This document shows, in pieces, positions 1-17,723 of a stretch of DNA of 19,786 nucleotides (positions within the stretch are counted from its first letter, which is position 1; the number at the start of each line of letters is the position of its first letter). The position numbers and the translations under genes were made by a program. Below the pieces are notes generated by a model, which was not told the origin of the DNA, searched no databases, and saw only the letters and a program-made list of their open reading frames with translations. Source of the DNA: Deferribacterales bacterium (lineage in GTDB: Bacteria; Chrysiogenota; Deferribacteres; Deferribacterales; Geovibrionaceae); NCBI GenBank assembly GCA_050251945.1, contig JBFWLW010000021.1, positions 1 to 19,786 on the forward strand, written 5' to 3'.

Positions 1-29
1 TCTTCGGGGGTAAACTCACGTTCGAGCAT
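1..29 (-). CDS. 5' end of a gene running off the left edge (MLEREFTPE...), product unknown
   Basis: ATG at 29-27 (cat on +), preceded by the SD-like AAGGAGAG (ctctcctt at 35-42). The frame stays open to the window edge. Too short to assign. Confidence 0.6.
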
Positions 30-59
30 GAACTCTCTCCTTTAAATTTAGTGTATACG

Positions 60-96
60 AAAAAAAGCCCTTTAGCTATTCGCTAAGGGGCTTTTT
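60..96 (-). terminator. Intrinsic terminator downstream of the XRE gene, probably bidirectional
   Basis: aaaaaaagccctttagc-tattc-gctaaggggcttttt is a GC-containing stem with one mismatch, flanked by A and T runs, about 45 bp after the stop at 143. Confidence 0.85.
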
Positions 97-142
97 ATTA
101 GTGTCCTAATTTAAGGATACAGTTCATAACGGGGCTATTTTT

Positions 143-976
143 CTAGTATTTGACTGCGTGCCAGTGTATCTTATACACTCTGCAGTCTGCGAGGAGTTCG
201 GAACCTTTTTGATGAACAACAGGTTCTCCTGCTCCGACTTCCGGTGCGAAAAGCACTTTGTCGGCGGAAACGAACGCCCGCATATATTTGAGCGATGAGC
301 CGTCAAAATAGAGAACAGGTTCTCTATCGCCCAGATCGCCAAGGGCTAATTTTTCAACGTACAGAATGTCTGACTCGTTGACCTTTGGAGCGAATCTTCC
401 GTCATTAACGGAAACCCACACCGCGCCTTTTTCCTTCTCGCATCTGCCGTCTTCGACATCGCTCAGGTTAAATCTGATAACGGGCGCTTCCGGTTCATAC
501 AGAACAGATTCTGCTTCCGCGGCGGAGGATGCTCCGAAATCCATCGAATACCCCTCTTCTTCCCCGATCAGATCCGAAACTTTGCATGTCAGACAGCTTG
601 CAAGGTTTTCGATTAAATCTCTTTCAAACTCGCCGTACCCCAGTTCCAGTCTCGAAATAAACTGAACGTCGAGCTTCGCAACAACAGCCAGATCGCTTTT
701 GGAAAAACCTCTCTTTTCCCTCATCTTTTTAATGTTTTCCCCGATCTCTTTGGTGTTTTTGATGTTATCGCCATAGGCGAAATAATCGAGTTTCACTTCC
801 AGAAATCTGGCTACTCTGGAAAGTGTTTCAAGATCGGGTTCTCTGCTGCCGCTCAGGTAGTTTGAAAGCCTGGAAGGTGAAAGCCCGACAGCACGGCAAA
901 CGTCTATCTGCTTAATTCCCTTCCTTTTGATTAATTTACGAATCTTATCTCCCAACATAAATGAATCATACCTCAT
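143..976 (-). CDS. XRE-family transcriptional regulator with two tandem HTH domains and a degenerate peptidase S24-like C-terminal domain
   Basis: HTH1: LGDKIRKLIKRKGIKQIDVCRAVGLSPSRLSNYLSGSREPDLETL. HTH2: IGENIKKMREKRGFSKSDLAVVAKLDVQFISRLELG. The C-terminal WVSVNDGRFAPKVNESDILYV resembles the S24 V-x-GDSM-x-P...GD-h-h-h pattern. Confidence 0.85.
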   Translation of the reverse strand: MRYDSFMLGDKIRKLIKRKGIKQIDVCRAVGLSPSRLSNYLSGSREPDLETLSRVARFLEVKLDYFAYGDNIKNTKEIGENIKKMREKRGFSKSDLAVVAKLDVQFISRLELGYGEFERDLIENLASCLTCKVSDLIGEEEGYSMDFGASSAAEAESVLYEPEAPVIRFNLSDVEDGRCEKEKGAVWVSVNDGRFAPKVNESDILYVEKLALGDLGDREPVLYFDGSSLKYMRAFVSADKVLFAPEVGAGEPVVHQKGSELLADCRVYKIHWHAVKY

Positions 977-1283
977 TAATTATAACCAGTAAATCAACTA
1001 ATTGCACATAAGCCTGAAATGTACACGAAACGCATACCCATATATGCAAAAATGTCAGAACTGATCAGAATTTTTAAAATTAATCAGAAACTTACCTGAA
1101 AGAAAGTCCCGAAATAATTATTACAAAGCCAGTGTTTCTAAACGTAATAATATTCGTTATACTGAAAGTGACAATAGTTTTTTTGTATAGACATATTCCA
1201 ATCCGTAATCTACACAATTCAGCCACATCGTTTCAGATGATTTTATATGAAGACATTTTCTGAATTTGGTGATATGTAAGCAA

Positions 1284-1724
1284 ATGCTTGAGCGCATGAG
1301 ACACAAGATAAAAAAGATACTGCTGCTTGATTATTCTCCGCGAAGGATAGCGATGTCCTGCGCTGTGGGAATCTTCATAGGCTTTTCGCCTTATGTGGGT
1401 CTTCACACAGGTCTTGCCATGGGCGCTTCGTTTCTTTTCGGTCTGCCGCTTTATCCGCTGATACTGGGCGCATACATCACCAATCCGTTCACGCTTGTTC
1501 CCATATACACTCTATGCTATAAGTTCGGCGCACTGGTCACAGGCAGGCATATCACATCCATGCCGGATTTCAGCAGCTTTGAATATACAGCCATGATACA
1601 CACGGCAAAGACGTTCTTTATACCTTTTTTTGTGGGAACACATCTGCTGGGGTTGATTCTTGCAGTAATAACGTATATCCTATCCTATTATTTAATTAAA
1701 AAATACAAAGGCAGAGTCGCATAA
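1284..1724 (+). CDS. DUF2062-family membrane protein (ORF track starts at TTG 1266; ATG 1284 is more likely)
   Basis: Motifs SPRRIAMSCAVGIFIGFSP...G-H and NPFTLVPIY...YKFG, plus hydrophobic segments. The stop overlaps the next ATG (TAATG). Confidence 0.85.
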   Translation: MLERMRHKIKKILLLDYSPRRIAMSCAVGIFIGFSPYVGLHTGLAMGASFLFGLPLYPLILGAYITNPFTLVPIYTLCYKFGALVTGRHITSMPDFSSFEYTAMIHTAKTFFIPFFVGTHLLGLILAVITYILSYYLIKKYKGRVA

Positions 1725-2608
1725 TGGCTGAAATTATCGCAGTTGCCAGCGGAAAAGGCGGCGTTGGTAAAAGCTTTTTCTCTTCAAACCTGTCCATGTC
1801 CCTCAAAACAGCAGGGAACGAAACGCTTCTGGTCGATGCAGACCTCGGCGGCGCGAACCTGCACGATTTCGTCGGGCTTAAGGTTCCGGGCAAGGGCCTT
1901 TACGAGTTTTTGAAAGAAAAGATAGACATCAATTCGGTAATTACTGAAACCCCCGCAGGGATCGACTTTGTGGGCGGGTCCAGCGATGTTCTGGGTATGG
2001 CGCACATCACAAATTTTGAAAAGCTGAAAGTTCTGAACAGGCTGAAAAAACTCGATTATAAATATATAATACTTGACCTCGGCGCCGGAACAAGCTTCAA
2101 TATGATAGATTTTTTCAACTTTGCCGACAAAAAGATAATGATTATGAACTCAGAGCCCACCAGCCTTGAGAACTCATACGGTTTCCTCAAAGTTGCGCTC
2201 TACAGAAAGATTGAACTGCATCTGCGCAAGGATACGAAATTCAGCGACATATGTAACAAGCTGCGCAGCAAAAGCATGAACTATCCCAATATCAACTCCA
2301 TAACAAAGGCTCTCATTCAGGTGGACAGCACCGGAACTGGAGAAATACGAAAAATGGTCGATGATTACAGGATAGGAACCGTACTGAATATGGTGAGGAC
2401 ACGCAAGGAACTCAACGTTTTTTACGGTTTTGAATCGGTTACTAAAAAATATCTCGGCATAGATATTGAAAAATTAGGTTTTATGCCTTATGATATTAGC
2501 GTCAGCGAAAGTATTAAACTGATGCGGCCTTATTATATAAACAACATGCGAAGTGATGTGGCAAAATGTATCGACGATATCAGAAGCCATATCATAACAA
2601 AGCTTTAG
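1724..2608 (+). CDS. MinD/ParA/FlhG-like P-loop ATPase
   Basis: Deviant Walker A SGKGGVGKS, switch region VDADLGGANLH, Walker B IILDLGAG, and EPTSLENSY. Confidence 0.9.
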   Translation: MAEIIAVASGKGGVGKSFFSSNLSMSLKTAGNETLLVDADLGGANLHDFVGLKVPGKGLYEFLKEKIDINSVITETPAGIDFVGGSSDVLGMAHITNFEKLKVLNRLKKLDYKYIILDLGAGTSFNMIDFFNFADKKIMIMNSEPTSLENSYGFLKVALYRKIELHLRKDTKFSDICNKLRSKSMNYPNINSITKALIQVDSTGTGEIRKMVDDYRIGTVLNMVRTRKELNVFYGFESVTKKYLGIDIEKLGFMPYDISVSESIKLMRPYYINNMRSDVAKCIDDIRSHIITKL

Positions 2609-2618
2609 GGAGATTTTT

Positions 2619-4685
2619 ATGAGTAATCTTCAGCCTGTCAGAGACCTTGAATATGGGGATGTCAGCCACTCTGATGACCTTGAGGTCATTCAGCTTGTAG
2701 GTCTTAAACTGGGGGATGAAGAATATGCCATTGACGTCCTTAAGATACAGGAAATAATCCGCACCGTGGATATAACCTCCGTACCAAGAACGGATACGTT
2801 CGTTCTCGGGGTCATGAACCTCAGAGGAAAGGTTATTCCGGTCATTGACCTGCGTGTACGCTTCTCACTGGATAAAATGGACTTTGATAAAGAAACACGT
2901 ATCATCGTCGTTAAGTTTGAAACGGAAAACATCGGTTTCGTTGTAGATGAAGTCACAGAGGTCATCCGCATAAACAAAAAAATGGTTGAACCCACACCGC
3001 CTTTGGTCGGCGCGGTGGGTCAGGAATATATACTCGGCATATGCAAGTATGCAGACCGCCTTATCATTCTTCTTGATATCGACAGTGTCGTTACAGACGG
3101 CAAACCTACCATCGAAAGCAATCTTAAGAAATCTCTGCTCTTACAGCCCGGTCAATCCGCACAGGCGGCTCTGCCTTCACAGGAGCAGAACTTCACAAAA
3201 ATAGCCGAAGCTGTCGAAAAAGAGTACGACATGAAAGACGCTGAACCCGCAGCCATAGAAACAACCGAAAAACCGGCGGCAGAAGACAGCGCATCCCTTG
3301 ACGACCTCATCGCAATGGAACTGGCAAAACGCGAAGCGGAAACCGACGAGCTTAACCAGAAAAAGAAAGAGGACACCGAGGGAAAAAAAAAGCCTGAATT
3401 AGATCAGGAGGCGATGGACGACATCCTGAACGACGCGCTGAACCAGTCCGAAAGCTCAATGCAGTCCACATCGGGACACGTTGAACAGGACGAGCTTGAT
3501 TTCCTTATCCAGCAGGAACTTTCTAAGCGCGAGGCAGAGACCGAAGAGCTTAATAAAAAAAAAAAAGTAACTGAACCGACAGGGCAGGCATGCAGCGTAG
3601 CGGCGGAACCTGCGGCATCGGTTGAATTTTCAGAAGATGACATAGAAAAGCTTATGGCTGCCGAAATGGCAGCGGAAGAGCTTGCCGCTAAAAAATTACC
3701 CGAAACCGCTCCCGAATCGGAAAAAGAACCTGTTCAGGAATTATCAGCTATATCTGAAGCTGAGAAGGAATCTGAAAATTTCCCCGAAAAAACAGAAGAT
3801 TTTGCCATCCCGGAAGACCTCGCCGCAGAGTTCGGTTTCGACACGTCCGCACTTGAAAAACCAGCTCATGAAGAACAGGAAGATGAAGAATTCACACTTC
3901 CGGAGCCTGTTGAACAGGAAATGGGCGATGAGATAATAGGAAAAGGTCTGCCGGATGAATACACTGAAAGCGACCAGCTTGTCGGCTCCGTGGATTCGCT
4001 TCTGGAAGAACTTAAAGCGGCTCCGGTGGAGCCTATGCAGGCGGAAAGCATACATGAACTGAAAGCCTCTTCATCCATTCCTGTCAGTGAGCAGGAATCA
4101 TTTGAAAAGCTGAAGACACTCTCCAAAAAGATAATAGACGGCGAAAAAGTTGACCTCGGAATATCCATCAAACAGGAAGTTTCCGAACTGCTCCGCCTTA
4201 TCCTTGATACAAAGGGACGCGTGGACGAAATAGAACCCACCCTGATCACGTCCAAAGAACAGCTTCCCAACCTTGTAAGGTCACTTGAAAACGTAACCGA
4301 ATCCACAGAAGAAGCAACTATGGGGCTTATGGAAGCGGCGGACGGACTCACCGGACACTATCAGGAATTTCTCAACGAGATTGAAGACCTCGAAGACCTG
4401 ATGTACAAAAAAGATCAGACCGCCATACTCAAAAAGCTGGAAAAACTTGAAAACAGCGCCGAAATGGCAGACACAATGGGCATGAGCATCCTGCACGCGC
4501 TTGAGTTTCAGGATATCACTGAGCAAAAACTCAACAAGGTGATCAATGCAGTAAGGGAGATTGGCGGCAGACTGGGCGCCATTCTCGGATTTATCAAGCT
4601 CAAACAGGAAGTCGATCCCACAACGGTCGAAGACGCTTCTCAGGACGATATCGACAAACTGCTTGCGGAATTCGGGCTGAACTAA
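2619..4685 (+). CDS. Fusion protein: N-terminal CheW domain, long acidic linker, C-terminal CheZ-like phosphatase domain
   Basis: CheW (aa ~20-158): LGDEEYAIDVLKIQEII...VLGVMNLRGKVIPVIDLRVRF...GFVVDEVTEV. CheZ: LENVTESTEEATMGLM, catalytic D-x-x-x-Q motif in ALEFQDITEQKLNKV, and C-terminal ASQDDIDKLLAEFG. SD GGGAG at 2608-2612. Confidence 0.9.
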   Translation: MSNLQPVRDLEYGDVSHSDDLEVIQLVGLKLGDEEYAIDVLKIQEIIRTVDITSVPRTDTFVLGVMNLRGKVIPVIDLRVRFSLDKMDFDKETRIIVVKFETENIGFVVDEVTEVIRINKKMVEPTPPLVGAVGQEYILGICKYADRLIILLDIDSVVTDGKPTIESNLKKSLLLQPGQSAQAALPSQEQNFTKIAEAVEKEYDMKDAEPAAIETTEKPAAEDSASLDDLIAMELAKREAETDELNQKKKEDTEGKKKPELDQEAMDDILNDALNQSESSMQSTSGHVEQDELDFLIQQELSKREAETEELNKKKKVTEPTGQACSVAAEPAASVEFSEDDIEKLMAAEMAAEELAAKKLPETAPESEKEPVQELSAISEAEKESENFPEKTEDFAIPEDLAAEFGFDTSALEKPAHEEQEDEEFTLPEPVEQEMGDEIIGKGLPDEYTESDQLVGSVDSLLEELKAAPVEPMQAESIHELKASSSIPVSEQESFEKLKTLSKKIIDGEKVDLGISIKQEVSELLRLILDTKGRVDEIEPTLITSKEQLPNLVRSLENVTESTEEATMGLMEAADGLTGHYQEFLNEIEDLEDLMYKKDQTAILKKLEKLENSAEMADTMGMSILHALEFQDITEQKLNKVINAVREIGGRLGAILGFIKLKQEVDPTTVEDASQDDIDKLLAEFGLN

Positions 4686-4697
4686 CACTACCCAAGA

Positions 4698-4774
4698 CGT
4701 CTTCGCAAGTGAAGCAACGGGAATTGTCTGCAGAGAGACTGCCTCGTCAATCTGAAGACTCCCCGCAGAGGCGG
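4698..4774. repeat. Degenerate inverted pair of REP-like palindromic repeats
   Basis: cgtcttcgcaagtgaagcaac (4698-4718) and gagactgcctcgtc...ccccgcagaggcgg (4735-4774) resemble the copies at 15060-15093 and 15018-15054. Confidence 0.6.
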
Positions 4775-4926
4775 TTATCATCTAATTCTGCAGAACGTTT
4801 GTTTAAAAACAGGGCTTCCACATTCCAAGCTTTAAAAGTGTACGGAGAATATTTGTCGTCTGCTCACTTTTTGCTGTTAAATTCATGACAAATTCCGAAT
4901 ACAGGTATACGGTTTTTTGATAGCAA

Positions 4927-5115
4927 TTATCAACACTTCGATTGTTGATAACTTGTGGAAAATAATCCGTGTATTTTCAACAGTCTTAACCAACCTTAAT
5001 CTCCCTTAAACATAATTCCCTATTTTTCAAATACTTATCTCAAACGCTTGACAAGCAAGGGTTACGACTGTCAAGCATTTTTTTATCCACAAAATTGTTG
5101 AGAATTTGTGTAAAG
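4927..5115. promoter_or_regulatory. DnaA-box cluster (candidate oriC or datA/DARS-like locus)
   Basis: Perfect TTATCCACA at 5083-5091. TTTTCCACA on the minus strand at 4954-4962. One-mismatch boxes at 4927-4935, 4943-4951 (-), 4974-4982 and 5107-5115 (-). IHF-like TTTCAAATACTTA at 5025-5037. Strongly AT-rich tract at ~5116-5290. Confidence 0.65.
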
Positions 5116-5297
5116 AAAAATAAACGGTCTAAAAAAACAATTAAAAACAAATCAGTTAACCGTTTTGAGTATTTTTTGTGCAGGCACCTTTACATAAAAT
5201 TTTTTTTATGTATCTTTTTTAATACACTTCTATTAATAAAATATTGCATAGTCATATGGTTTGAACTAAAATATTGTTTTTAAAACGGAACAATTTG

Positions 5298-7205
5298 ATG
5301 GCAAATATAAATACAAGATCTGTCTTCCGCATGTTCATTGAAGCCTGCGGAAAGTACAAAGGCAACACAGCTTTTATATACCGGGTGGGCGGTCAGGAGT
5401 TTTCTGTAACTTTCAAAAAACTTCTTGAGGACGTCTTCATTCTGTCGCGCAGTCTCAGCGCTAAGGGTATATCCAAAGGGGACAAGGTTCTTTTTATATC
5501 CGACAACAGATATGCGTGGATAGTCACGGATATGGCACTGGCATCACTTGGCGCCGTCAGCATCCCCAGAGGAAGCGACACGCCTCCCCACGAAATGAAG
5601 TACATCACAGGTCATTCGGAAGCAGGATTTGCCATTTTTGAAACCGAAGCGGTTTACGAATCTGCAAAAAAAGAGCTTCTGGACGAATATTTCAAAAAGA
5701 TATTCCTCATCGAAGGGGACATAGTAGGGCATCCGGAAGGTCAGGTACACACCTATAACGAAATTCTTGCCGACCGGATTTTCACAGAAGCCGAAATGCA
5801 GGCTTTCCTCGAACTCGACCCCACAAACGAATCTGACATCTTCACCTTAATATACACATCAGGAACAACGGGCTACCCGAAAGGCGTACCGCTGTCCAAC
5901 ATGAACGTCATACATAACCTTTTGGTAATGCCCGAAATAGTCGCCCTTACAGAAAAGGACAGCTTCCTGTCCATTCTTCCCACATGGCACATTTTTGAGC
6001 GTGCTGCGGAGCTTATCGCCGTTATGAACGGCTGCTGTACGGTCTATTCAGGAGTAAAAACGTTCGCTCAGGATCTGGAACAATACAAACCCACTATAGT
6101 CGCATCTGTGCCGCGGGTGTGGGAATCGCTCTATTCTAAGGTACAGGTAGCGCTTGAAAAGCAGTCGAAATTCAAACTTTTTATGTTCCAGTTCCTATCA
6201 AAAGCATCGGCATCATTTAACCGCAACTCACGCTATCTCCTCGGTGTTCTTCCTGAATTTGAAAAAACACCCATGAAACAGCGAATAAAAGAGACCCTTA
6301 CCGCTATAGCCAAAGTTATCCTTCTCCTGCCGCTTAAGATGTTAGCAATGAACAAGTTCAAGGCGGTTCAGGCAAAGTTCGGCGGACGGCTCAGGCTTGC
6401 AGTCAGCGGCGGCGGAAGCCTTCCCGGATACCTTGAAGACTGGCTCGACGCTATCGGTCTGCGCATCGTAAATGCATACGGCATGACGGAATGCGCTCCC
6501 GCCATAGCAGGCAGAGGGCTTGACTGTCAGATATTCGGCACCCTCGGCAAACCCGTAAAAGGAACAACCCTCAGGATAATAGACGAAAACGGCAAAGCAC
6601 TGCCCGAAGGTCAGGAAGGTGAAATAATCGTTAAAGGACCGCAGGTATTCGCAGGGTATTACAATTCGCCGGAAGAGAACGCAAAATCCTTCACTGCAGA
6701 CGGCTTTTTCCGTACCGGCGACCTCGGCAAACTGACTTTCTCAGGTGAACTGAAAATAACAGGACGCATTAAAGATATAATCGTTCTGGCAAACGGTGAA
6801 AACATAGACCCTTCACGCATAGAATCAGCCATTACAATGCTTCCGTTCATTAAGGATGCTGTGCTGGTCGGGCAGGATCAGAAGAGCCTTGCGGCACTGA
6901 TCATCCCCGATATGGAAAAACTTAAAGACTATATGACGTCCAGACTGGAACATATCCGTTCTGATTTCGATATGAACTCCAAACCGGTCGTCGATCACGT
7001 TAAAAGAGAGATAAACAAATTGCTTTCAAACAAAAAAGGCTTCAAAAACCACGAGAAACTACATAACCTCTCCTTTCTGGAGCAGGAATTCAAACAGGGC
7101 GAAGAACTGACAAATACCCTGAAAAAACGCAGACATTTCATTGAAAAGCGCTACAAAGAACTTATATCCGGTCTTTTCAAACAGAATAACAATGACAGTC
7201 AATAA
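5298..7205 (+). CDS. Long-chain fatty-acid--CoA ligase, AMP-forming, FAA1/ACSL type (ORF track starts at TTG 5274; ATG 5298 is more likely)
   Basis: AMP-binding signature IYTSGTTGYPKGV, plus YGMTE, GFFRTGDLG, GRIKDIIVLANGENIDP and ELTNTLKKRR. Confidence 0.92.
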   Translation: MANINTRSVFRMFIEACGKYKGNTAFIYRVGGQEFSVTFKKLLEDVFILSRSLSAKGISKGDKVLFISDNRYAWIVTDMALASLGAVSIPRGSDTPPHEMKYITGHSEAGFAIFETEAVYESAKKELLDEYFKKIFLIEGDIVGHPEGQVHTYNEILADRIFTEAEMQAFLELDPTNESDIFTLIYTSGTTGYPKGVPLSNMNVIHNLLVMPEIVALTEKDSFLSILPTWHIFERAAELIAVMNGCCTVYSGVKTFAQDLEQYKPTIVASVPRVWESLYSKVQVALEKQSKFKLFMFQFLSKASASFNRNSRYLLGVLPEFEKTPMKQRIKETLTAIAKVILLLPLKMLAMNKFKAVQAKFGGRLRLAVSGGGSLPGYLEDWLDAIGLRIVNAYGMTECAPAIAGRGLDCQIFGTLGKPVKGTTLRIIDENGKALPEGQEGEIIVKGPQVFAGYYNSPEENAKSFTADGFFRTGDLGKLTFSGELKITGRIKDIIVLANGENIDPSRIESAITMLPFIKDAVLVGQDQKSLAALIIPDMEKLKDYMTSRLEHIRSDFDMNSKPVVDHVKREINKLLSNKKGFKNHEKLHNLSFLEQEFKQGEELTNTLKKRRHFIEKRYKELISGLFKQNNNDSQ

Positions 7206-8937
7206 TACTTTCCTGCCTGTAACACAGGAAGAAATCTCTCAGCTCGGCTGGGACAGACCGGACGTAATACTTGTCTCCGGTGATACATATCTCGACAGCC
7301 CGTACAACGGAACAGCAATAATAGGCAGACTGCTGACAGAGGCAGGATACCGCACAGCCATAATCGCACAGCCTGACATGGATACAAATGATATAGCGCG
7401 TCTGGGCGAACCGAGGCTCTTCTGGGGTGTGTCCTCGGGGTGTGTCGATTCGATGGTGGCAAACTACACGGCATCCATGAAAAAACGCCGGACTGACGAC
7501 TTTACCCCCGGCGGCGAAAACACCAAACGCCCTGACAGAGCCGTCTTAGCATATACAAACCTTATCCGCAGACATTTCAAAAATACCGTTCCCATCGTTA
7601 TCGGCGGCATAGAGGCGAGCCTGCGCAGAGTGACCCATTACGATTTCTGGTCGGATAACCTGCGTAAATCAATCCTTTTCGACGCAAAAGCGGACTATCT
7701 TGTCTACGGAATGGGCGAAAAATCAATTTTTGAGCTTGCGGAAGCACTTAAAAACGGACAGGAAACCAAAGGCATCAGAGGACTTTGCTACATTGCCAAA
7801 GAGATACCCAGGGGCTACATAGAACTGCCGTCCCACGAAGACTGCGCGGCGAACAAAGATATGTTCACGCGAATGTTCCACACATTCTATAAGAATAACG
7901 ACCCTATAACCGCAAAAGGGCTTGCGCAAAAGATCGACAGCAGATATCTGGTGCAGAACCCGCCGTCTGCCACACCTTCGCGCACTGAGATGAACAGCTA
8001 TTACGAGCTGCCCTACACCTATAAAGTGCACCCATTCTATGCCAAACAAGGACTGGTGAGAGCGCTTGATACTATTAAAAACTCTATCACCACCCACAGA
8101 GGCTGTTACGGCGAGTGCAACTTCTGCGCAATTGCCGTGCATCAGGGAACGACTATAGCTGAACGTACGGAAGCTTCCATGATTAAGGAAGTAAAAAGAT
8201 TTAAAGACGCAGGCGGCTTCAACGGAATAATAAATGATTTGGGCGGTCCCACTGCGAATATGTATGGCATGGAATGCCGTAAAAAGAAGGATCACGGCAG
8301 ATGCGATAACAAACGCTGCCTCTATCCGCAAAAATGTCCCCAGATGCCCGCGGATCACAGGAAAATAAGCAGCCTGATGAACACGCTGCGCAATATGACT
8401 GGCGTGAAACGTGTGTTCGTTGCGTCCGGTATCCGTTACGATATCATCATGGAAGATAAACAGTTCGGCGGTCAATACCTTGACAACCTTGTGGATTTTC
8501 ATGTGAGCGGACAAATGAAGATAGCTCCCGAACACACTCAGGACAATGTGCTTGGTCTCATGGGCAAGCCGTCCGCCGAGGTACTGAAAAAATTTGTCGC
8601 GGAGTTCCAGAAACGGAATAAAGGCAAAAAACAATTCCTCACCTATTATCTGATAGCGGCTCACCCCGGCTGTACAATAAAGGATATGGGAGACCTTAAA
8701 AGGTTCACCTCAAAACAGCTTCGCATAAACCCCGAACAGGTGCAGATATTTACACCTTTACCGTCAACATATTCCGCGTTGATGTATTACACCGAAAAAG
8801 ACCCGTTCACAGGAAAAGAAATTTTTGTGGAAAAGAACCAGCAGAAGCGGAAAGATCAGAAAGACGCCATAATACCAGCTGAAAAACAGTTCGTACAAAA
8901 AAAGATACAGCAGGTCAAAAAAAGAAAGGGGCGTTAG
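7192..8937 (+). CDS. ygiQ: YgiQ-family (UPF0313) radical SAM protein (ORF track starts at TTG 7141; ATG 7192 is more likely)
   Basis: N-terminal FLP...GWDRPDVILVSGDTYLDSP, GGIEASLRR, radical SAM motif RGCYGECNFC, DLGGPTANMY, APEH, AHPGC, and EQVQIFTP. Confidence 0.9.
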   Translation: MTVNNTFLPVTQEEISQLGWDRPDVILVSGDTYLDSPYNGTAIIGRLLTEAGYRTAIIAQPDMDTNDIARLGEPRLFWGVSSGCVDSMVANYTASMKKRRTDDFTPGGENTKRPDRAVLAYTNLIRRHFKNTVPIVIGGIEASLRRVTHYDFWSDNLRKSILFDAKADYLVYGMGEKSIFELAEALKNGQETKGIRGLCYIAKEIPRGYIELPSHEDCAANKDMFTRMFHTFYKNNDPITAKGLAQKIDSRYLVQNPPSATPSRTEMNSYYELPYTYKVHPFYAKQGLVRALDTIKNSITTHRGCYGECNFCAIAVHQGTTIAERTEASMIKEVKRFKDAGGFNGIINDLGGPTANMYGMECRKKKDHGRCDNKRCLYPQKCPQMPADHRKISSLMNTLRNMTGVKRVFVASGIRYDIIMEDKQFGGQYLDNLVDFHVSGQMKIAPEHTQDNVLGLMGKPSAEVLKKFVAEFQKRNKGKKQFLTYYLIAAHPGCTIKDMGDLKRFTSKQLRINPEQVQIFTPLPSTYSALMYYTEKDPFTGKEIFVEKNQQKRKDQKDAIIPAEKQFVQKKIQQVKKRKGR

Positions 8938-8942
8938 CCCCC

Positions 8943-9082
8943 CAGACTGATGACAAAGAGGAGAAAAGACTAGATTGCTTCGCTTCGCTCGCAAAGACGG
9001 AAAGAAAAACCTGTCTCTGCGAGGGCTTTAGCCCGAAGCAGTCTAATGGTTTTGTATGAATCTGTAGTTTGTCAACAACCTG
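8943..9082. mobile_element. MITE-like element (140 bp) with imperfect 15-bp terminal inverted repeats, a 16-bp flanking direct repeat and an internal REP-like doublet
   Basis: Ends cagactgatgacaaa (8943-8957) and tttgtcaacaacctg (9068-9082) match 12/15 as an inverted pair. Flanks aggggcgttagccccc (8927-8942) and aggggcgataaccccc (9083-9098) match 14/16. Internal inverted REP-like units at 8971-9000 and 9011-9045. Confidence 0.75.
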
Positions 9083-9103
9083 AGGGGCGATAACCCCCTC
9101 CTG

Positions 9104-11833
9104 TCAGAATTTTATCTTTAAATTCTCCGTCTTTTCTCCGCGGAGAACCTTCATATCGTATTCTCTGCCCTTATCCGCGTAAAGAAGCTCCAGCTTCAGC
9201 GTTGCAAGGTCTTTTAAATCTACACCGTTAAATGATGTCAGAATGTCGTCTTTCAACACACCGCCCGACTTTGCGGCAGATTTATCCGCAACCTCGACAA
9301 CCTTGAGTTTTCCGTCCTTGTCGTCAAGCCCAACGCCAAGCATGGGCGAAGCGTCGTATTCGCTCTCTGCCGGATAAAGAACGTAATCCGCTATCCCCGG
9401 TCTGTTCTCCTCATCCTGACACACAGCTACGTAGTTCAGCAGGTTCCTGCGGAACAGCCTTTCCGGTATGGACGATCTATAGCGGACATGCCCGTTTCCG
9501 GCTATTATGACCATCAGCCTGTCGGGATTCGCTTTTATATATTTGTCGGCTGAATCCGCCATGGTCTCATCCCACAGAAGCTGAGCCTCGTAAAAGTTTT
9601 CAAAGTCTTTGCCCATCGGGTGCATCGAAAATATGGTTGTAAGGTTCTCCCTGTATGCCCCGTCGGTGTATTCTATGCTGTCCGGTATCTGCTTAAGATC
9701 CTCCGCATCAAGGGATTTTATGCCGCCTGCCGACACTTTTTTGGTTATCTCCTGCGGTGTGTTGAGCGCCACAAGGGGGATACCGTTCTCTCTTGCATAG
9801 CGGAAAATGGGCATATACATGCGGAAGTCGAACTTCCATCGGCTGTAGTATTCAGTGCGGGCAAGCATCTCTTTTTCGGTTATTTTACTTGCGACATAAT
9901 CGTCAAGCGCCTGCTGAAAGGGCTTTTGAACCATCTCAAGTCCAACGGCAACCTTTTTTCCTGCTTCGTTCAGCCTGCGGATGAACTCAAGCTGGTTCTC
10001 GTGATGAGCGTAGCTCGTATGTGATTCGCCCACATAGAATATTTTCGCATATGGATTTTCTTCTATAATGGTTTTGATGCTTATTGCGGACTGCACGCGT
10101 TCCCCCTGTCTGTCGTCGTAAAGGATGAATCTGTTGCCCTGCCATGCCTCTGTCAGTTTAGGGGTCATTCTGCCGTTTTCAAGAGACAGAGAGCTGTATT
10201 TGCCGTAATGACTTGCCCTTGCGATATTCTTTGCCGCTGTTTCAGCGTCTGACGCGTGTATGACATACGTCATTCTGTCTGTATAAAGCGGATGGAGTGA
10301 AGATATCATCTCAAAATCAGACCTGATAACGGGAGCGTTTACGCCGTAATATTTCTTATATGCGGCGTTGTCCCTGTCAAGAAAGATAAGTATTTTATCG
10401 TTATATTGATAAGGATTTACATCGTCACTGTAAACCTCGGCATTACTTATCATCTTCAAAACGCTTTCGTATTTTGTTTTATTCTTTGCGCTCACAAATA
10501 CCGCTTTGGGGTATTTGCCCCAAAGTCCGTAAAATACCGGATAAACCTCTGTCCGGTCAAGCATCCGCGCTGTTTTATACTGCGGGTCGATAACCAGTTC
10601 GTCGGGTCTCTCCTTGGTTTTGATAACTATTTCCTTGTCCTTCGTGTCGATATACTGCGTGCTAAGCGTATCGCCTTTATCTGTTCTGACAACAACTTCC
10701 AAAGGATAGTTAAGGTTTTCATAGCGGTTCTTTATTGTGAACGATGTTTCGTAACCATCCATAACCGCCTTATAGCCCGCCTTGTCAACGTCAAACTCGG
10801 CTATATAATTCTCAGCAAGCCAGCCGTCGAAAAATTTATCAAGTTTTCTGCCGGAAGCGTCCTCAAAACACTTCTGGAGTTCATCCCAGCCTGCCTGTTC
10901 ATATTTGTATCTGCTGTAGATAAGTTTCAGCCCTTTTCCAAAAGCATCGGAACCTATAACATCCTCCAGCATCGAGAAGAACATCATCCCTTTGGAATAA
11001 CCCACCGCCTGTGCGGCTTTCCCGCTGTTATAGCTGAATCCTATCAGGCAATTGCCATCCTCTTTCTGTCTGGCGTTCTGCATGATGTCGATTATCGCCG
11101 ACTTGCGGTACTGCACATCCTTTCCTTCCTGCTTTTCATAAAGTCTGTCTGCAAGGTATGTTGTCAGCCCTTCCGCCCAGTTTCCGTTGCGGTCTGTTTC
11201 AACTGAAACCCCTGCCCACTGGTGCAGAAGTTCGTGACCCAATGAAGTCTTTGTCATGAAAGGCATTGCTACTATCCTGTCTGAAACAAACGTGAGAGAA
11301 ACATGCGCATGACCAACGGGATACGGCACGTCCGCCACGGCAAACCTGCCATAGGGGTATTTCCCGAACATACCTGAATACATGTTCATAAGTTCCTTTA
11401 TCCTGTCGAAATAGGTGTCCGCATACTGCATATTCTCTTTTGAGAAGTAGACAGCAAGCTCAACCCCGTTGAATTTCTCGGTGCGCACCTGCCATTTGTC
11501 GGATATTCCGAGCATCATGCCGTACCTGGCATGTTTCAGAGTGAATTTATAGCCGTATTTTGTTTTTTCGGCTCTGTCGCTCTCGGCGATCGCTGTGTAG
11601 CTTTCGGGAAGGGTCAGTTCAAGGACGTAGCTTGTGTCCTTCGGCTCTCCGAACCAGTCACCGTCAAGGATAAAGGTGCCGTTCATATCCGTAATGGCAC
11701 TTTGGAAGGGTTTTCCGTCCACAGTGCCGGAAATGACCTTTGCCGTCATGTCCGCTTTCGCTTTCACCAGCGTTGCGGCGTTTACAGAAAATACTGATGT
11801 GATTAAAAGAAACATGGATAACAGTCTTTTCAT
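9104..11833 (-). CDS. Exported protein: M1/gluzincin-type metallopeptidase + ChaN-like (EreA/ChaN/TIKI fold) domain + C-terminal PDZ
   Basis: Signal peptide ending in VNA. HELLHQW...NWAEGLTTY zinc motif and YSKG. ChaN-like YVGESHTSYAHHENQL, GLEM, AQLLWDETMA and AGNGH. PDZ: LGVGL...SAAKSGGVLKDDILTSFNG. Confidence 0.8.
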   Translation of the reverse strand: MKRLLSMFLLITSVFSVNAATLVKAKADMTAKVISGTVDGKPFQSAITDMNGTFILDGDWFGEPKDTSYVLELTLPESYTAIAESDRAEKTKYGYKFTLKHARYGMMLGISDKWQVRTEKFNGVELAVYFSKENMQYADTYFDRIKELMNMYSGMFGKYPYGRFAVADVPYPVGHAHVSLTFVSDRIVAMPFMTKTSLGHELLHQWAGVSVETDRNGNWAEGLTTYLADRLYEKQEGKDVQYRKSAIIDIMQNARQKEDGNCLIGFSYNSGKAAQAVGYSKGMMFFSMLEDVIGSDAFGKGLKLIYSRYKYEQAGWDELQKCFEDASGRKLDKFFDGWLAENYIAEFDVDKAGYKAVMDGYETSFTIKNRYENLNYPLEVVVRTDKGDTLSTQYIDTKDKEIVIKTKERPDELVIDPQYKTARMLDRTEVYPVFYGLWGKYPKAVFVSAKNKTKYESVLKMISNAEVYSDDVNPYQYNDKILIFLDRDNAAYKKYYGVNAPVIRSDFEMISSLHPLYTDRMTYVIHASDAETAAKNIARASHYGKYSSLSLENGRMTPKLTEAWQGNRFILYDDRQGERVQSAISIKTIIEENPYAKIFYVGESHTSYAHHENQLEFIRRLNEAGKKVAVGLEMVQKPFQQALDDYVASKITEKEMLARTEYYSRWKFDFRMYMPIFRYARENGIPLVALNTPQEITKKVSAGGIKSLDAEDLKQIPDSIEYTDGAYRENLTTIFSMHPMGKDFENFYEAQLLWDETMADSADKYIKANPDRLMVIIAGNGHVRYRSSIPERLFRRNLLNYVAVCQDEENRPGIADYVLYPAESEYDASPMLGVGLDDKDGKLKVVEVADKSAAKSGGVLKDDILTSFNGVDLKDLATLKLELLYADKGREYDMKVLRGEKTENLKIKF

Positions 11834-11880
11834 CTGCGCCTCGCAATTATATTGGGAATTTGTTGAAAATATGACTTATT

Positions 11881-12849
11881 TTAACCTTTTTGGTTCAGAA
11901 AAAGGAAGCGGTAAAAGTGTACGTCGGAAAGTTTAGCGCTGATGCGTACAGCAAGTGCGATGAAAAGAATTGAAAAAACAGTTCTGAGCAGAAGTATACC
12001 CGAAAGATGCCCGCCGATGGAGACCATAAGTAATGTATCCTCTATCATCGAGTGACAGATGCCCATGAAGGCGAGGCTGAAAAACACGTCCCTGTGGCTG
12101 ATTGTCCCCGAACGTGCCTCGTTTATGATGAGTCCGCCGCCGTATGTAAGCCCCAGCGTAAAGCCGACCATAGTGAGATAAGCCGCCTCTTTGCCGATTC
12201 CCATAAGTTTCATGAGCGGTTCACAGGCGGAGTTTATCAGGTTTATCACGCCGATAACTTTCAGCACCTTCATTATGAATACCAGAAGGGTCACGATGCA
12301 GGCAATATATGCGAGGTTCTGCACCTCACCGAGCGCCCAGCCGGCGACGGATGCGTCAACAGGCGAAGGTTTCAGCAGAATTTTTGCGGGTTGATCAAGC
12401 CACCCGCCATAACTGTATATAAGATTAAGAATTATGCCGAAAATGAGCGCCGAACCGATGCGAAATGCCGCCATCGCCGCGAAACGCGTTCCGGCTTTTT
12501 TCGCTATCTGCACTTCCACAGGAATTGCGTGTGCCATGAGCATCATAGATGCAAGCACTGTCGCCTGCGCAGCCGTCAGCTCCATCTTGCCTGCCAGCGA
12601 AGCGAACACGATGATACCGCCGTATATGTTGGTAAGCAGTGCGGATGCCCATGCAAGCCCCATCTCGCCCGGCAGTCCTGTCAGCACCATGAGGGGCGAC
12701 AAAATCTTTCCCAGCAGGGTCACAAGCCCCAGCATATCCAGTATCTTTATAAGGATCATCATAGGCACAAGTATCCTGAACAATGTTACAAGGATGAAGA
12801 ACGACTCCCTGAAAGTGGATACGAATATGTGCCTTATGCTGTAGATCAT
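11881..12849 (-). CDS. Nucleoside-recognition (Gate) domain integral membrane protein, putative transporter
   Basis: Multiple TM segments with two repeats of the Gate-like pattern (LSPLMVLTGLPGE; CEPLMKLMGIGKE), plus GLTYGGGLI and CHSMIEDT. The start overlaps the ilvA stop (ATGA). Confidence 0.75.
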   Translation of the reverse strand: MIYSIRHIFVSTFRESFFILVTLFRILVPMMILIKILDMLGLVTLLGKILSPLMVLTGLPGEMGLAWASALLTNIYGGIIVFASLAGKMELTAAQATVLASMMLMAHAIPVEVQIAKKAGTRFAAMAAFRIGSALIFGIILNLIYSYGGWLDQPAKILLKPSPVDASVAGWALGEVQNLAYIACIVTLLVFIMKVLKVIGVINLINSACEPLMKLMGIGKEAAYLTMVGFTLGLTYGGGLIINEARSGTISHRDVFFSLAFMGICHSMIEDTLLMVSIGGHLSGILLLRTVFSILFIALAVRISAKLSDVHFYRFLFLNQKG

Positions 12850-14042
12850 ACGATGCGCTCTATCTCATAAAGTGAGCTTAAACGCTTCATTATTCTGTCT
12901 ATGTGATCCTGACCTCTGGTTTCAAGAGAGACGTTCACGCGACTCTGGTTCAGAGGCACGCGCTGGTCGTTGCGTATGTGGGCTATCTGATGGATATTCG
13001 CCTGCAGATTGCTTATCTCCTGTGAAAGAGACGTGAGCGCGCCCGGCACATCCCGAAGGATGATGGATACGGTCATAAACCTGCCCGTTGCCGTCATGCC
13101 GCGGCTGATTATGCGGCTGATGGTGGTGACGTCTATGTTGCCTCCGGAGACCACAAGCACTGTCGTTTTGTCTTTCACATCCACCTTTCCGGCAAGAACA
13201 GCGGCAAGGGGTGCGGCTCCCGCGCCCTCGACAACGAGTTTTGCGCGTTCGATATATTCAAGCACGGCAAGTGCTATCTCGCTTTCGGAGACTGTAACAA
13301 GCTGATCCACACAGTTTTTGCAGGATGCGAAAGTAAGCTCGCCCACCTTTTTCACAGCTATGCCCTCGGCAAAAGTTGCCGAAGTTGAAAGGCTCACCAC
13401 CCTGTCCTCTGACAGACTGCTCACCATTCCCGCCGCCTCTTCCGCCTGCACACCGATAACCTTTATTTTCGGATTGAATTCTTTGACATATTCCGCGATA
13501 CCCGAAATCAGACCGCCGCCGCCCACAGGCACAACTATCTGGTCTATGTCCGGTTTTTCCGCCAGAATCTCATATGCTATCGTACCCTGTCCGGCTATCA
13601 CGTCGCGATCGTCGAACGGATGGATGAAATGCAGTCCGCGTTCTTTGCCTATCTGCACTGCATATTTGTATGCGTCTTCAAAGGACTGCCCGTAGAGTAT
13701 AACTTCAGCTCCGTGGCTCTGAGTGTTTGCCACTTTTACCATCGGAGTGAATTCCGGCATAACTATCACAGCCTTAATACCCAGTGTCTTCGCGCTGAAC
13801 GCCACGCCCTGTGCGTGATTTCCGGCGGATGCGGCGATTATGCCGTCCCTGCACATCTCCTGATTTTTCAGGATGCAGTTGAGCGCACCGCGTATCTTGA
13901 ACGAGCCTGTGCGCTGGAGGTTTTCCAGTTTGAAATAGATATTTGCGCCTGTTATCTCGGAAAAATTGTTGGAGTAGTACAGAGGCAGATATTTGATGTA
14001 GTCTTTTATCCTTTCACGGGATTGCGTAACTTCGTTTAACAT
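12846..14042 (-). CDS. ilvA: Threonine ammonia-lyase (dehydratase), PLP-dependent, with a single C-terminal ACT domain
   Basis: KLENLQRTGSFKIRGA (PLP lysine), ASAGNHAQG, PVGGGGLISG, VVEGAGA, SGGNID, and ACT segment LRDVPGAL. Confidence 0.93.
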   Translation of the reverse strand: MLNEVTQSRERIKDYIKYLPLYYSNNFSEITGANIYFKLENLQRTGSFKIRGALNCILKNQEMCRDGIIAASAGNHAQGVAFSAKTLGIKAVIVMPEFTPMVKVANTQSHGAEVILYGQSFEDAYKYAVQIGKERGLHFIHPFDDRDVIAGQGTIAYEILAEKPDIDQIVVPVGGGGLISGIAEYVKEFNPKIKVIGVQAEEAAGMVSSLSEDRVVSLSTSATFAEGIAVKKVGELTFASCKNCVDQLVTVSESEIALAVLEYIERAKLVVEGAGAAPLAAVLAGKVDVKDKTTVLVVSGGNIDVTTISRIISRGMTATGRFMTVSIILRDVPGALTSLSQEISNLQANIHQIAHIRNDQRVPLNQSRVNVSLETRGQDHIDRIMKRLSSLYEIERIV

Positions 14043-14174
14043 ACAGATATATTAGCCGTTATTGTTACAATTGCAACCACAACTATTGCAACTTTGAAGG
14101 ACATAATAAATCATATGCACTTCTATACAATTTGGTGTAAGATTCCAAGTATATCATAAGAAGGAGTGATCCAT

Positions 14175-14966
14175 ATGAGCGATATATTACCTGATCTGAC
14201 CACATACGCATGGCAGATTGCTTTTGCAATATTAATTCTTGTCATAGGACGTTATGCGGCAAGGTATCTTTCAAAATTTTCCGTCAGGCTGATGGAAAAA
14301 GGAAAAATGGATAAAACACTGTCCAAGTTTCTCTCAGGTATAATCTACTATGTCAGTATGGCTGTTGTTATCATTGCTTCGCTGAATCAGCTGGGCATCG
14401 AAACTACGTCTATCGTAGCCGTACTCGCCACGGCAGGCTTGGCTGTGGGTCTTGCACTTAAGGATTCACTGTCAAACTTTGCGGCGGGCGTTATGATCAT
14501 AACCTTCCGCCCCTTCGTAATAGACAACTTCATCGAGGCGGGCGGCACAACAGGGGTTGTCGAGCAGATAGGTATTTTCACCACGCAGCTTAAAACTCTC
14601 GACAACAAGACAATAATAGTTCCCAACGCATCCATAATCAGCAACACTATAACAAACTACTCCGCCAAGGACACCAGAAGGGTCGACCTCACCATCGGCG
14701 TCAGCTACGGAAGCGATATCAAACTGGTGAAAGCAATACTGAAAGAGATCGTTGAGGCAGACGAACGCGTAATGAAGGATCCCGAACCAACTATCGCCGT
14801 TGCGGAACTCGCGGACAACAGCGTTAATTTCGCGTACAGGCTCTGGGTTAAATCGGACGATTACTGGAATGTATATTTCGATACACTGGAAAACGTTAAG
14901 CTTAAATTCGACGAAAACAGGATATCCATCCCCTTCCCGCAGATGGACGTACATATCACAAAATAA
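14175..14966 (+). CDS. mscS: Small-conductance mechanosensitive channel (ATG 14175 after SD AAGGAG at 14161-14166)
   Basis: AGLAVGLALKDSLSNFAAGVMIITFRPF, IIVPNA, RRVDLTIGVSY, ISIPFPQMDVH. Confidence 0.93.
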   Translation: MSDILPDLTTYAWQIAFAILILVIGRYAARYLSKFSVRLMEKGKMDKTLSKFLSGIIYYVSMAVVIIASLNQLGIETTSIVAVLATAGLAVGLALKDSLSNFAAGVMIITFRPFVIDNFIEAGGTTGVVEQIGIFTTQLKTLDNKTIIVPNASIISNTITNYSAKDTRRVDLTIGVSYGSDIKLVKAILKEIVEADERVMKDPEPTIAVAELADNSVNFAYRLWVKSDDYWNVYFDTLENVKLKFDENRISIPFPQMDVHITK

Positions 14967-14989
14967 CAACGGGGGCTTTCGCCCCCTCA

Positions 14990-15121
14990 CGGATTCTTGT
15001 CAAACTATTAAAACAATGAGACTGCTTCGTCGCTAATGCTCCTCGCAGAGACGGGTTTTGTCTTCGCGAGGAATGAAATGACGAAGCGATCTCGTATTTA
15101 TATGCCTTTGTCATCAGTCTG
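14990..15121. mobile_element. Second MITE-like element of the same family, inserted at a terminator hairpin between the convergent mscS and ccsA genes
   Basis: Right end ctttgtcatcagtctg (15106-15121) is the exact reverse complement of 8943-8958. Degenerate left end cggattcttgtcaaa at 14990-15004. Flanking direct repeat gggctttcgccccct is identical at 14973-14987 and 15125-15139. Internal REP-like doublet at 15018-15054 and 15060-15093. Confidence 0.75.
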
Positions 15122-15122
15122 A

Positions 15123-15150
15123 GCGGGCTTTCGCCCCCTATTCTTTTTTT
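15123..15150 (+). terminator. Intrinsic terminator hairpin; one of the two duplicated copies
   Basis: gcgggc-tttc-gccccc followed by a T-rich tail. A more perfect copy, gggggc-tttc-gccccc, lies at 14971-14986. Confidence 0.6.
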
Positions 15151-16225
15151 ATAAAGCTCCGTATGAGTGGAGTCCGGAAATCAGCAAATTCACACCGATA
15201 TATGTAAATATCGTACATACAAAACCCGCCACAGCAACTGCCGAAGCCTTCGCCCCTGTCCAGTCTTTAACGTATCTGGCGTGGAGGTAAAACGCGTATA
15301 TCAGCCATGTGATGAGCGCCCACGTCTCTTTCGGATCCCATGACCAGTAGCGTCCCCAAGCCTTGTCAGCCCAAACGGCACCGAATATCAGCCCGCCGAC
15401 AGTAAATATGGGGAAGCCCACGGATATCATCTTATATGTGAGTTCCTCCATAACCTTTCCGTTTATGGAGAATCTGTCCATCAGACAGGCAAGTTTTCCG
15501 CCGAAATACCACGAAGCGGCACAGAAAAAGGCATAAACAGCAAATAGAATTGCAAAACCGCCCGCGCCCATATTTTTAAACGTGAAATAAAGCGGTTTGT
15601 ATGCGCCCTCCACAGCCTTCGCTGAGAGAGCGGTCGTAAAATCGCCTATAACGAGCAAAGTGACGAAAACAAACGTGCCCAGCGCCACTGTCCAGAAGAT
15701 ATACACACCGCTTCTGCGCAGAAGTCTCAGCGATGCCAGATGCAGAACCGCCGCCACAAAAGACATTGAAAAAGCCGCATAGGCTATGAAACTCATTGTC
15801 GCGTGCGCCAGAAGCCAGTTGCTTTTAAGAGCGGGAACAAGAGGCTGTATGCCCTTCGCCGCACCGATGGTGTCAACGAAAGCCACCGCCATCCCCGCGA
15901 TAGCCGTGAGGAAAGCGCCCATAAATTTTGTTTTATAACGTCTTTCGATCCAGATATTGCCCGCTATCACACACCATGCGAAAAACAGCAGTGATTCGTA
16001 TAGGTTTGTTATTGGAACCGAGTGGAAAAATCCAAGATGATATGTGTTTGAAAACTCAACCCAGCGCAGAAGAAACGCGGCAGTGTGGCACACAAAACCG
16101 AATATCGCCATCCATGACGCCGTTTTGCCTATCACCTCTTTTTTAAGAATAAGATAAGCAACGTATACCGCCATTGTTACCATGTAGGTAATACTTGCTA
16201 TACCGAATAAAACGGAGCTGTTCAT
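15149..16225 (-). CDS. ccsA: Cytochrome c biogenesis System II heme lyase CcsA/ResC
   Basis: PITNLYESL, LVPALKSNWLLAH, tryptophan-rich WWD domain WADKAWGRYWSWDPKETWALITW, and C-terminal GLHSY. Confidence 0.93.
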   Translation of the reverse strand: MNSSVLFGIASITYMVTMAVYVAYLILKKEVIGKTASWMAIFGFVCHTAAFLLRWVEFSNTYHLGFFHSVPITNLYESLLFFAWCVIAGNIWIERRYKTKFMGAFLTAIAGMAVAFVDTIGAAKGIQPLVPALKSNWLLAHATMSFIAYAAFSMSFVAAVLHLASLRLLRRSGVYIFWTVALGTFVFVTLLVIGDFTTALSAKAVEGAYKPLYFTFKNMGAGGFAILFAVYAFFCAASWYFGGKLACLMDRFSINGKVMEELTYKMISVGFPIFTVGGLIFGAVWADKAWGRYWSWDPKETWALITWLIYAFYLHARYVKDWTGAKASAVAVAGFVCTIFTYIGVNLLISGLHSYGAL

Positions 16226-16226
16226 A

Positions 16227-17588: not shown

Positions 17589-17624
17589 GGATACACCTCA
17601 AAGTAAGAATAACAAATAATTAAT

Positions 17625-17660
17625 GAGATTGCTTCGTCACTCCGCTCCTCGCAAAGACGG
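17625..17660. repeat. Single REP-like palindromic unit
   Basis: gagattgcttcgtcactccgctcctcgcaaagacgg is closely similar to 15018-15054 and 8971-9000. Confidence 0.8.
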
Positions 17661-17679
17661 CAGACGCGGCAGTCTGTTT

Positions 17680-17708
17680 AAAAAACGGGGGACTTAAAAA
17701 GTCCCCCG
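17680..17708 (-). terminator. Intrinsic terminator of the nitrite reductase gene
   Basis: Perfect 10-bp stem cgggggactt / aagtcccccg (17686-17695 / 17699-17708), followed on the minus strand by a T run, 15 bp after the stop. Confidence 0.85.
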
Positions 17709-17723
17709 CAAGGTTTATGTCTG

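Follow-up and report, generated by a model that had tools for sequence, protein, structure and literature searches.

A conserved A run between the CheW and CheZ parts of a Deferribacterota chemotaxis gene as a probable recoding site

We analyzed a stretch of 19,786 nucleotides (nt) from a Deferribacterales bacterium of the Geovibrionaceae (GenBank assembly GCA_050251945.1, contig JBFWLW010000021.1, positions 1 to 19,786), here called the window. It carries a gene at 2619-4685 whose product joins a CheW domain, through two helical repeats and a linker, to a CheZ-type phosphatase domain, and whose closest named relatives are Seleniivibrio CheW proteins. Twelve consecutive A residues (A12) lie at the end of the second repeat. 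Comparison of the gene across the phylum makes it highly likely that this site is a functional recoding signal of some kind, whether read by the polymerase or by the ribosome. We further consider it probable that the run is a programmed site whose most likely mechanism is transcriptional slippage of the Thermus dnaX or Citrobacter tssM type. Labels used below are G for genome (G000 being this genome), g for genus, f for family, L for locus, P for protein and C for contig.

According to this proposal, RNA polymerase would stutter on a run of 9-14 A and release mRNAs that have gained or lost A. In the genome studied here, those that keep the frame would encode a CheW-repeats-CheZ protein of 688 amino acids (aa), while shifted mRNAs would stop within one or two codons and yield CheW with the two helical repeats (316-318 aa); a slip at an earlier run of nine A would give products of 259-260 aa. 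In lineages where the two parts lie in different frames the default would be reversed, with slippage yielding the long form. CheW would bring both products into chemoreceptor arrays, so the slip rate would set the share of CheW slots bearing a phosphatase, the phosphatase activity itself being predicted. A pair of products of about 316-319 and 688 aa had been suggested by an earlier sequence-only reading of this DNA, and the conserved run, the frame flips among relatives and the selection on the out-of-frame CheZ part all argue for it.

Rarity and conservation of the A run

The run is as that reading had described it: all four codons (313-316) are AAA, and stops close both shifted frames (Table 1). 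It had also set A12 against the mixed lysine codons at the end of the first repeat. Those codons are indeed mixed, but a run of nine A five codons further on had been overlooked. Two DNA assemblies that span the site (one of depth 178, possibly the source of the window, and one of depth 4.6) carry A12 without an indel, and therefore we do not regard it as an assembly slip; a homopolymer error in the window, which would have undone the earlier proposal, is ruled out on this ground. Assembly contigs do drop rare variants of tract length. Two sequencing runs presumed to be RNA gave coverage at 2687-3025 only, 5' of A12. A scan of 3300-3800 against Rfam gave one chance match (E 0.37), and a promoter and terminator scan found no plus-strand terminator 3' of A12.

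Long runs are rare in this genome. A12 is its sole A or T run of 12 in 3.07 Mb, where 33 runs reach at least nine (29 of nine and three of ten). On coding strands we counted 8 runs of at least nine, against about 88 expected from synonymous resampling of 1945 open reading frames (ORFs; approximate calls of our own, at least 200 aa), and two of these eight (A12 and A9) fall in the cheW-cheZ gene. The six others, of A9-A10, lie on contigs C1, C4, C10 and C13; one of them, an A10, is at codon 492 of a 556-codon ORF on the minus strand at C10 71851-73519. Lysine codons show the same avoidance: only 5 of 206 KKK tripeptides are encoded by A alone, compared with 63 expected, and none of the five EKKN peptides has an A run. 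All five genomes tested hold just 5-9 runs of at least ten A, one or two of them in this gene. The flanking MinD, CheW and CheZ domain coding DNA of the same loci contains one run in 104,265 nt. Selection against such runs in the rest of the coding DNA is one of the marks by which programmed slippage is recognized, and it is seen here.

Alignment of the locus across relatives, the check proposed by the sequence-only reading, showed that the run is conserved. In a phylum set of 68 genomes we examined the gene in 61 (59 plus two of the distant family f10), and 59 of the 61 orthologues, from 19 of 21 genera, carry a run of at least nine A between the part with CheW and the repeats and the CheZ part. 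Because the genomes are kin, these counts are not independent trials. Ten A is the usual length (43 of the 59), followed by 11 (8), 12 (3), 13 (2), 9 (2) and 14 (1), and two genomes (G009 and G015) have the sequence context of the window with one A fewer. Homologues without the run, or with AAG codons interrupting it, had been named as grounds for refutation; they are not the rule, and none of the grounds named was encountered where it could be tested. In 54 of 57 genes the run lies within about 10-22 codons after the last helical repeat. In the two f10 genes it is found far down the linker, directly before CheZ, and for that reason its homology is uncertain.

What is kept is the run rather than the peptide beneath it. 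The encoded residues vary (EKKN, NKKKKV, SKKKI, EKKKL), as does the codon phase (phase 1 in 41 and phase 0 in 16 of 57 genes). In 54 of the 57, stops close both off-frames within 21 nt, at a median of 8 nt compared with within-gene null medians of 19-73 nt (median percentile 0.07); the exceptions are G021, G054 and G056. In the two f10 genes both are closed within 15 and 9 nt, bringing the total to 56 of 59. An earlier, first run of 9-11 A is present in 25 of 57 genomes, and in the 27 listed genomes without it AAG or other codons interrupt the lysines that follow repeat 1.

The queries used did not find the gene in G017 and G024 (both 99% complete) or in G027, G039 and G050 (64-78% complete). 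Outside the 61, two genomes of the small-genome family f9 (G044, locus L103 on C37; G045, locus L102 on C32) have a divergent CheW with neither CheZ nor an A run; these f9 proteins carry a tandem-repeat tail rich in Thr, Ala and Asp and one repeat-like helix. A metagenome scan returned four loci, two of them informative; L097 has an extra upstream frameshift and L099 is a fragment.

Split relatives and the out-of-frame CheZ part

That CheW and CheZ might occupy different frames in some relatives had been put forward as a further sign of recoding, and it is what we observe in 11 genomes from three families, where the first ORF stops at the run and the CheZ part goes on in another frame. This split state is found in 4/4 genomes of g4, 4/4 of g15, 2/2 of g8 and 1/1 of g12, with the break at the run in 11/11; the gene is fused throughout g1 (7/7), g13 (13/13) and g5 (6/6). 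One A more would restore the frame in nine of the split genes and one A less in two (G011 and G019), and locus L098 also needs one A less. Members of g15 have the same A10 as their fused relatives and then a stop at once, so the frame difference there lies outside the run. On a tree of the MinD, CheW and CheZ blocks (FastTree, 59 rows, linker excluded) at least four changes of state are needed, in three families. Well-supported branches set the three split clades apart, and the tree leaves the order within f5 open.

Although out of frame with the ORF that precedes it, the CheZ part in split genomes is under purifying selection, as judged from substitution patterns. The ratio of nonsynonymous to synonymous substitution (dN/dS) is about 0.14-0.16 in g15 (three pairs); in g4 the proportion of nonsynonymous differences (pN) is 0.10-0.20 with the synonymous proportion (pS) saturated, and split CheZ parts retain FQDITEQ or FQDITQQ. 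Two genes annotated separately in such genomes are thus probably one gene. Programmed slippage is expected to leave a run kept independently of the peptide, fused and split orthologues, and selection on both parts, and all three are found here. The out-of-frame linker of g15 (L079, L080, L032) consists of seven-residue tandem repeats of the D-T-A-D-S-L-L type.

A protein collection gave a wider sample, in which clusters were sorted by nearest genus from the 120 matches listed for each of two length-limited searches; the resulting counts are not frequencies. By a loose rule, 52 of 59 short repeat-bearing proteins among the matches listed end at the run. Short forms make up 7/7 of the g15-type, 9/9 of the g12-type, 23/26 of the g4-type and 5/8 of the g8-type clusters among these matches, and 2/19 of the g1-type, 1/16 of the g3-type, 2/32 of the g11-type and 10/51 of the g13-type.

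Proposed polymerase slippage and its alternatives

Polymerase slippage becomes efficient once a run reaches nine A or T, and selection against runs sets in at that length too (PMC1088944, PMC5009743). The strict floor of nine, the need for shifts in both directions among genomes, the closure of both off-frames by stops and the absence of an upstream Shine-Dalgarno (SD) stimulator together lead us to favour transcriptional slippage. The run, at A12 here, also exceeds the six A that make up an A_AAA_AAG shift site.

The same two products could be made by the ribosome, through a -1 frameshift at A_AAA_AAG, A_AAA_AAC or A_AAA_AAT aided by a hairpin, or through sliding on iterated AAA codons; we hold this to be unlikely, if well short of negligible. 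Heptamers of the X_XXY_YYZ form are present in phase, A_AAA_AAA inside every run of at least nine and A_AAA_AAG, AAC or AAT at many run ends. Sliding on poly(A) is known (PMC4363877), and the E. coli dnaX site combines a heptamer with a hairpin (PMC3711429). Nine of the 11 split genes require the -1 direction, most of them ending in A_AAA_AAG or A_AAA_AAC plus a stop; G011, G019 and L098 require the opposite one.

The evidence from hairpins is uneven. The sequence-only reading had seen a possible hairpin after A12, and while its arms are where that reading placed them, the fold is not significant in the window (z -1.62 and -1.65), nor do five members of this genus (g1) share a consensus fold. 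Among 13 stretches folded, 11 gave z of -2.2 to -5.3, including 9/9 g3- and g4-type sequences, the other two being those of the window. Over the 57 genes z falls below -2 in 12, mostly in f1 and f5, where the median directly after the run is -1.9 (f1) and -2.7 (f5) compared with -0.9 to +0.4 and -1.8 to +0.6 at 11 other offsets. In all four g3 genes a stem of 11 bp lies 10 nt beyond the run and has one covarying pair, but the covariation is not above that of shuffles (41 of 500). The g4-type sequences have an unrelated 8-bp stem 16-18 nt after the run. The usual spacer between heptamer and stem is 5-9 nt, and the stems of g4 and G033, which begin 16-20 nt after the run, lie beyond it. Runs of 9-10 A or more are also kept in the 45 of 57 genes without a hairpin. 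A hairpin conserved phylum-wide was rejected; most AT-rich families have none. Where present, a hairpin may promote -1 shifting by the ribosome or shield the mRNA that lies beyond an early stop. An upstream SD stimulator of the E. coli dnaX type was likewise rejected, the SD values in 57 genes being weak (median -2.1 kcal/mol, median percentile 0.44) with only four at -7 or stronger.

A second alternative, that the tract is a contingency locus in which slipped-strand mispairing of DNA switches heritably between CheW-only and CheW-CheZ proteins, appears improbable to us. Three proteins of one species group (P0136, P0219 and P0017) are 99% alike and yet stand in three frames, two of them on contigs one base apart in size, and short variants in either shifted frame occur among the matches listed for g13-, g1-, g3-, g5- and g11-type proteins. 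The frame, however, is mostly fixed by genus, both in the fused genera and in g15, where 4/4 are split with the same A10, and every g15- and g12-type protein among those matches is short. The run has a length of 10 in most genomes, and the assembly of depth 178 contains no indel, rare variants being lost from contigs. If slippage rescues every frame, some variation in DNA would be expected, and because whole genera stay fixed in one frame we read it as a tolerated by-product. For the same reason the on/off branch is the weaker one of the sequence-only reading.

That the run is a by-product of a Lys-rich helix end, with the split genes being homopolymer errors, pseudogenes or pairs of genes with their own CheZ start, is very improbable: the peptide is Lys-rich and many records are metagenome assemblies, but runs are purged genome-wide and neighbouring lysine stretches are broken by AAG or other codons (on which grounds a poly-lysine by-product was rejected), the run stays while peptide and phase vary, and the splits fall at the run every time and recur by genus. 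The sequence-only reading had noted no convincing SD and start for a separate cheZ. There is no strong one after the run, but the ATG of M473 has a middling SD. At split loci an SD of -6 kcal/mol or stronger was found in 1 of 10, and in G026 and G049 no in-frame start codon lies between the run and CheZ. A separate CheZ start is thus unsupported in general; because g1, g4 and g15 repeatedly have an ATG 1-16 codons ahead of the CheZ domain (10-16 in g4), some internal initiation may occur.

This recurring ATG is one of several observations that weigh against programmed slippage by the polymerase. Two orthologues lack the run, one with an intact CheZ motif (G041) and one in which DxxxQ is lost (G048), and one protein (P0018) is fused with just two lysines. 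In G054, G055 and G056 the run follows an earlier or only repeat and is not at the orthologous position. A downstream hairpin 10-20 nt from the run in g3, g4 and f5, together with the bias of split genes to the -1 direction (9/11), is a better fit to a ribosomal shift. The split CheZ of g15 has a higher dN/dS than the fused CheZ of g13 (0.04-0.10). The CheZ part of G013 (L040 / L012) contains two further in-frame stops (TAA and TAG) in an otherwise conserved domain, which may be decay or base-call errors. Finally, the three-frame group of near-identical proteins indicates that the tract varies at the level of DNA or assembly, and some g13- and g1-type clusters are short among the matches listed.

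Transcriptional slippage remains the mechanism that we favour. More tentatively, and as speculation that we would not rate as likely, the phylum may possess an ancient slippage device that sets phosphatase density in arrays. One gene, sharing its transcript with that of a dedicated MinD/ParA ATPase, would yield two or three CheW isoforms (with one repeat, with two, or complete with CheZ), and the repeats would be an undescribed module for docking this ATPase; the short form would position arrays, ParP-like by convergence, and the long form would bring CheZ, with lineages tuning the ratio by default frame, run length, second run or hairpin.

Domains, gene neighbourhood and known systems

The CheW part is a full domain above the PF01584 cut-off, as expected of a CheW adaptor. 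The helical repeats belong to no known family in a Pfam/NCBIfam scan, and an ESM Atlas search gave no usable match. Proteins of g18 and f10 (L083/G055, L060/G054, L088/G041, L100, L101) carry an enlarged set of 4-5 or more such repeats. For the CheZ part, the PF04344 match at aa 558-666 is weak (E 8.5e-4, 19.7 bits against a curated cut-off of 30.7), and many orthologues have precomputed matches to PF04344. A profile search matched it to E. coli CheZ 1KMI (E 2.2e-6), a single-sequence PDB search reached just E 0.49, and Foldseek placed CheZ at rank 10 (E 0.03, a weak fold match). D632 and Q636 are invariant in 58/58 alignment rows, and helices are predicted at 542-597 and 600-665, so that the part has the long helical hairpin and the DXXXQ and AXXFQ motifs (names as in PMC7750401) of a CheZ-type protein. 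AlphaFold models have a mean pLDDT of 46 (short form) and 56 (long form); the CheW domain is poorly modelled, which leaves just the helices of the repeats and of CheZ as usable parts.

Table 1. Features of the cheW-cheZ locus in the window
Feature	Position	Strand	Remarks
MinD/ParA-family ATPase gene	1724-2608	+	Pfam/NCBIfam; stop overlaps SD of cheW-cheZ gene
SD-like site of cheW-cheZ gene	2607-2612	+	-8.9 kcal/mol against anti-SD 9-mer
cheW-repeats-linker-cheZ gene	2619-4685	+	688 aa long form, about 76 kDa
CheW domain (aa 25-159)	2691-3095	+	PF01584 E 1.3e-37, 128.9 bits, profile 1-135 of 138; PDB CheW matches
Helical repeat 1 (aa 226-250), D-x-LI-x-x-EL-x-KRE-x-ET-x-ELN-KKK	3294-3368	+	alignments; predicted helix 227-253, pLDDT up to 89
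First putative slippery run, A9	3383-3391	+	shifted stops TGA 3395-3397 and TAG 3400-3402; predicted products of 259 or 260 aa
Helical repeat 2 (aa 292-316), ends in A12	3492-3566	+	alignments; predicted helix 290-315
Main putative slippery run, A12	3555-3566	+	codons 313-316, all AAA (K313-K316)
Acidic, poorly conserved linker (aa 317-488)	3567-4082	+	low pLDDT; 22 to 234 codons in split relatives
TAA after loss of one A	3568-3570	+	predicted 316 aa product, about 35 kDa
Possible downstream hairpin	3568-3624	+	weak here (z -1.65), strong in sister genera
TGA after gain of one A or -1 ribosomal shift	3572-3574	+	predicted 318 aa product
Internal ATG (M473)	4035-4037	+	middling SD, -5.1 kcal/mol
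CheZ-type phosphatase domain (aa 489-688)	4083-4682	+	ALEFQ-DITEQ (aa 627-636) at 4497-4526

The MinD/ParA gene immediately precedes the cheW-cheZ gene in 56 of 59 loci, as it does in the two f10 loci that were added. It is not the canonical flhG, as a separate flhF-flhG is found on contig C3. A canonical cheY-cheZ-cheA cluster is also located on C3, and we therefore infer that the fused CheZ is a second, array-tethered phosphatase. A gene for a DUF2062 membrane protein (window 1266-1724) overlaps the start of the MinD-type gene and has an NCBIfam BspA match below the cut-off (55.9 against 300 bits); the order DUF2062, MinD, cheW-cheZ recurs in many loci, including G043 (f10). Divergent from this operon, at 143-976 on the minus strand, is a gene for a 277 aa protein with two HTH_3 domains, a possible regulator. 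Further along, at 15149-19412 on the minus strand, a gene for a multi-haem cytochrome of 562 aa with several CxxCH precedes two genes like those of cytochrome c biogenesis, and we take the group to resemble an nrfA-type nitrite reductase cluster. Elsewhere, L087 (G038:C2, a second replicon) and P0202 represent a stand-alone 272 aa CheW with one repeat and no CheZ downstream, named a plasmid protein by its source.

To our knowledge, few bacterial chromosomal genes use programmed slippage. Slippage that yields short products is hard to find by comparative analysis (PMC1088944). In the present case conservation reaches from the order to the most distant family of the phylum set, and there is a natural control, in that the gene has switched between a long and a short default at least four times. 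If true, it would represent a new way of tethering CheZ to arrays and setting its dose. In full-text literature searches, with most subscription papers outside their scope, none of the papers listed dealt with this CheW-CheZ fusion or with recoding in chemotaxis genes. Chemotaxis and CheW terms are absent from PMC3711429 (main text and two supplements), from PMC1088944, from the first 300,000 characters of PMC5009743 and from bioRxiv 2025.10.02.679949; PMC11896075 and PMC12887009 do no more than record, in one passage each, that the phylum has genes for CheW and CheZ. A mechanism of this kind is known already. As far as searched, what is new is the gene family, its CheW-repeat-CheZ architecture, the stacking of two runs and the repeated flips of frame.

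CheA-short of E. coli arises by an internal start. Like the gene described here, cheA yields two isoforms that govern how a phosphatase is tied to the array, but CheA-short is without the N-terminal 97 residues and binds a separate CheZ (PMC7750401), whereas the present gene fuses CheW and CheZ in one protein, which would lose its C-terminal part through a change of frame. In Vibrio, a ParA-type ATPase gene (ParC) lies beside that of ParP, which combines a CheW-like domain with a flexible tail, an outline shared by the predicted short form. ParP, however, has an N-terminal ParC-binding domain, a proline-rich linker and a C-terminal, P5-like AIF (PMC5706961), while in the present protein the order is reversed: the SH3-like domain is a true CheW at the N-terminus and the repeats are C-terminal.

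Among recoded genes, E. coli dnaX shares the A-rich heptamer, the downstream hairpin (present in some lineages here) and the early stop that gives a short product (PMC3711429), but its -1 ribosomal frameshift needs just A_AAA_AAG, with an upstream SD and one direction, in contrast to the runs of at least nine, the absence of a conserved SD and the two directions among genomes seen here. Closer is the dnaX of Thermus thermophilus (tau/gamma), with a long ORF, nine A, nearby stops in both non-zero frames and about half of its output as short product (PMC1088944, PMC5009743). It encodes a replication clamp loader and has nine A as opposed to 10-12; the chemotaxis gene adds split relatives, some with a downstream hairpin. 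In Citrobacter rodentium tssM1 and Yersinia pseudotuberculosis tssM3, transcriptional frameshifting at a poly-A run in a structural gene (11 A in tssM1) gives a short and a full-length protein, the two species have opposite defaults, and the ratio matters (PMC4256274). Those genes serve type VI secretion in two species, whereas the run described here, known from its sequence, lies in a chemotaxis gene, extends phylum-wide with repeated flips and often comes as two stacked runs.

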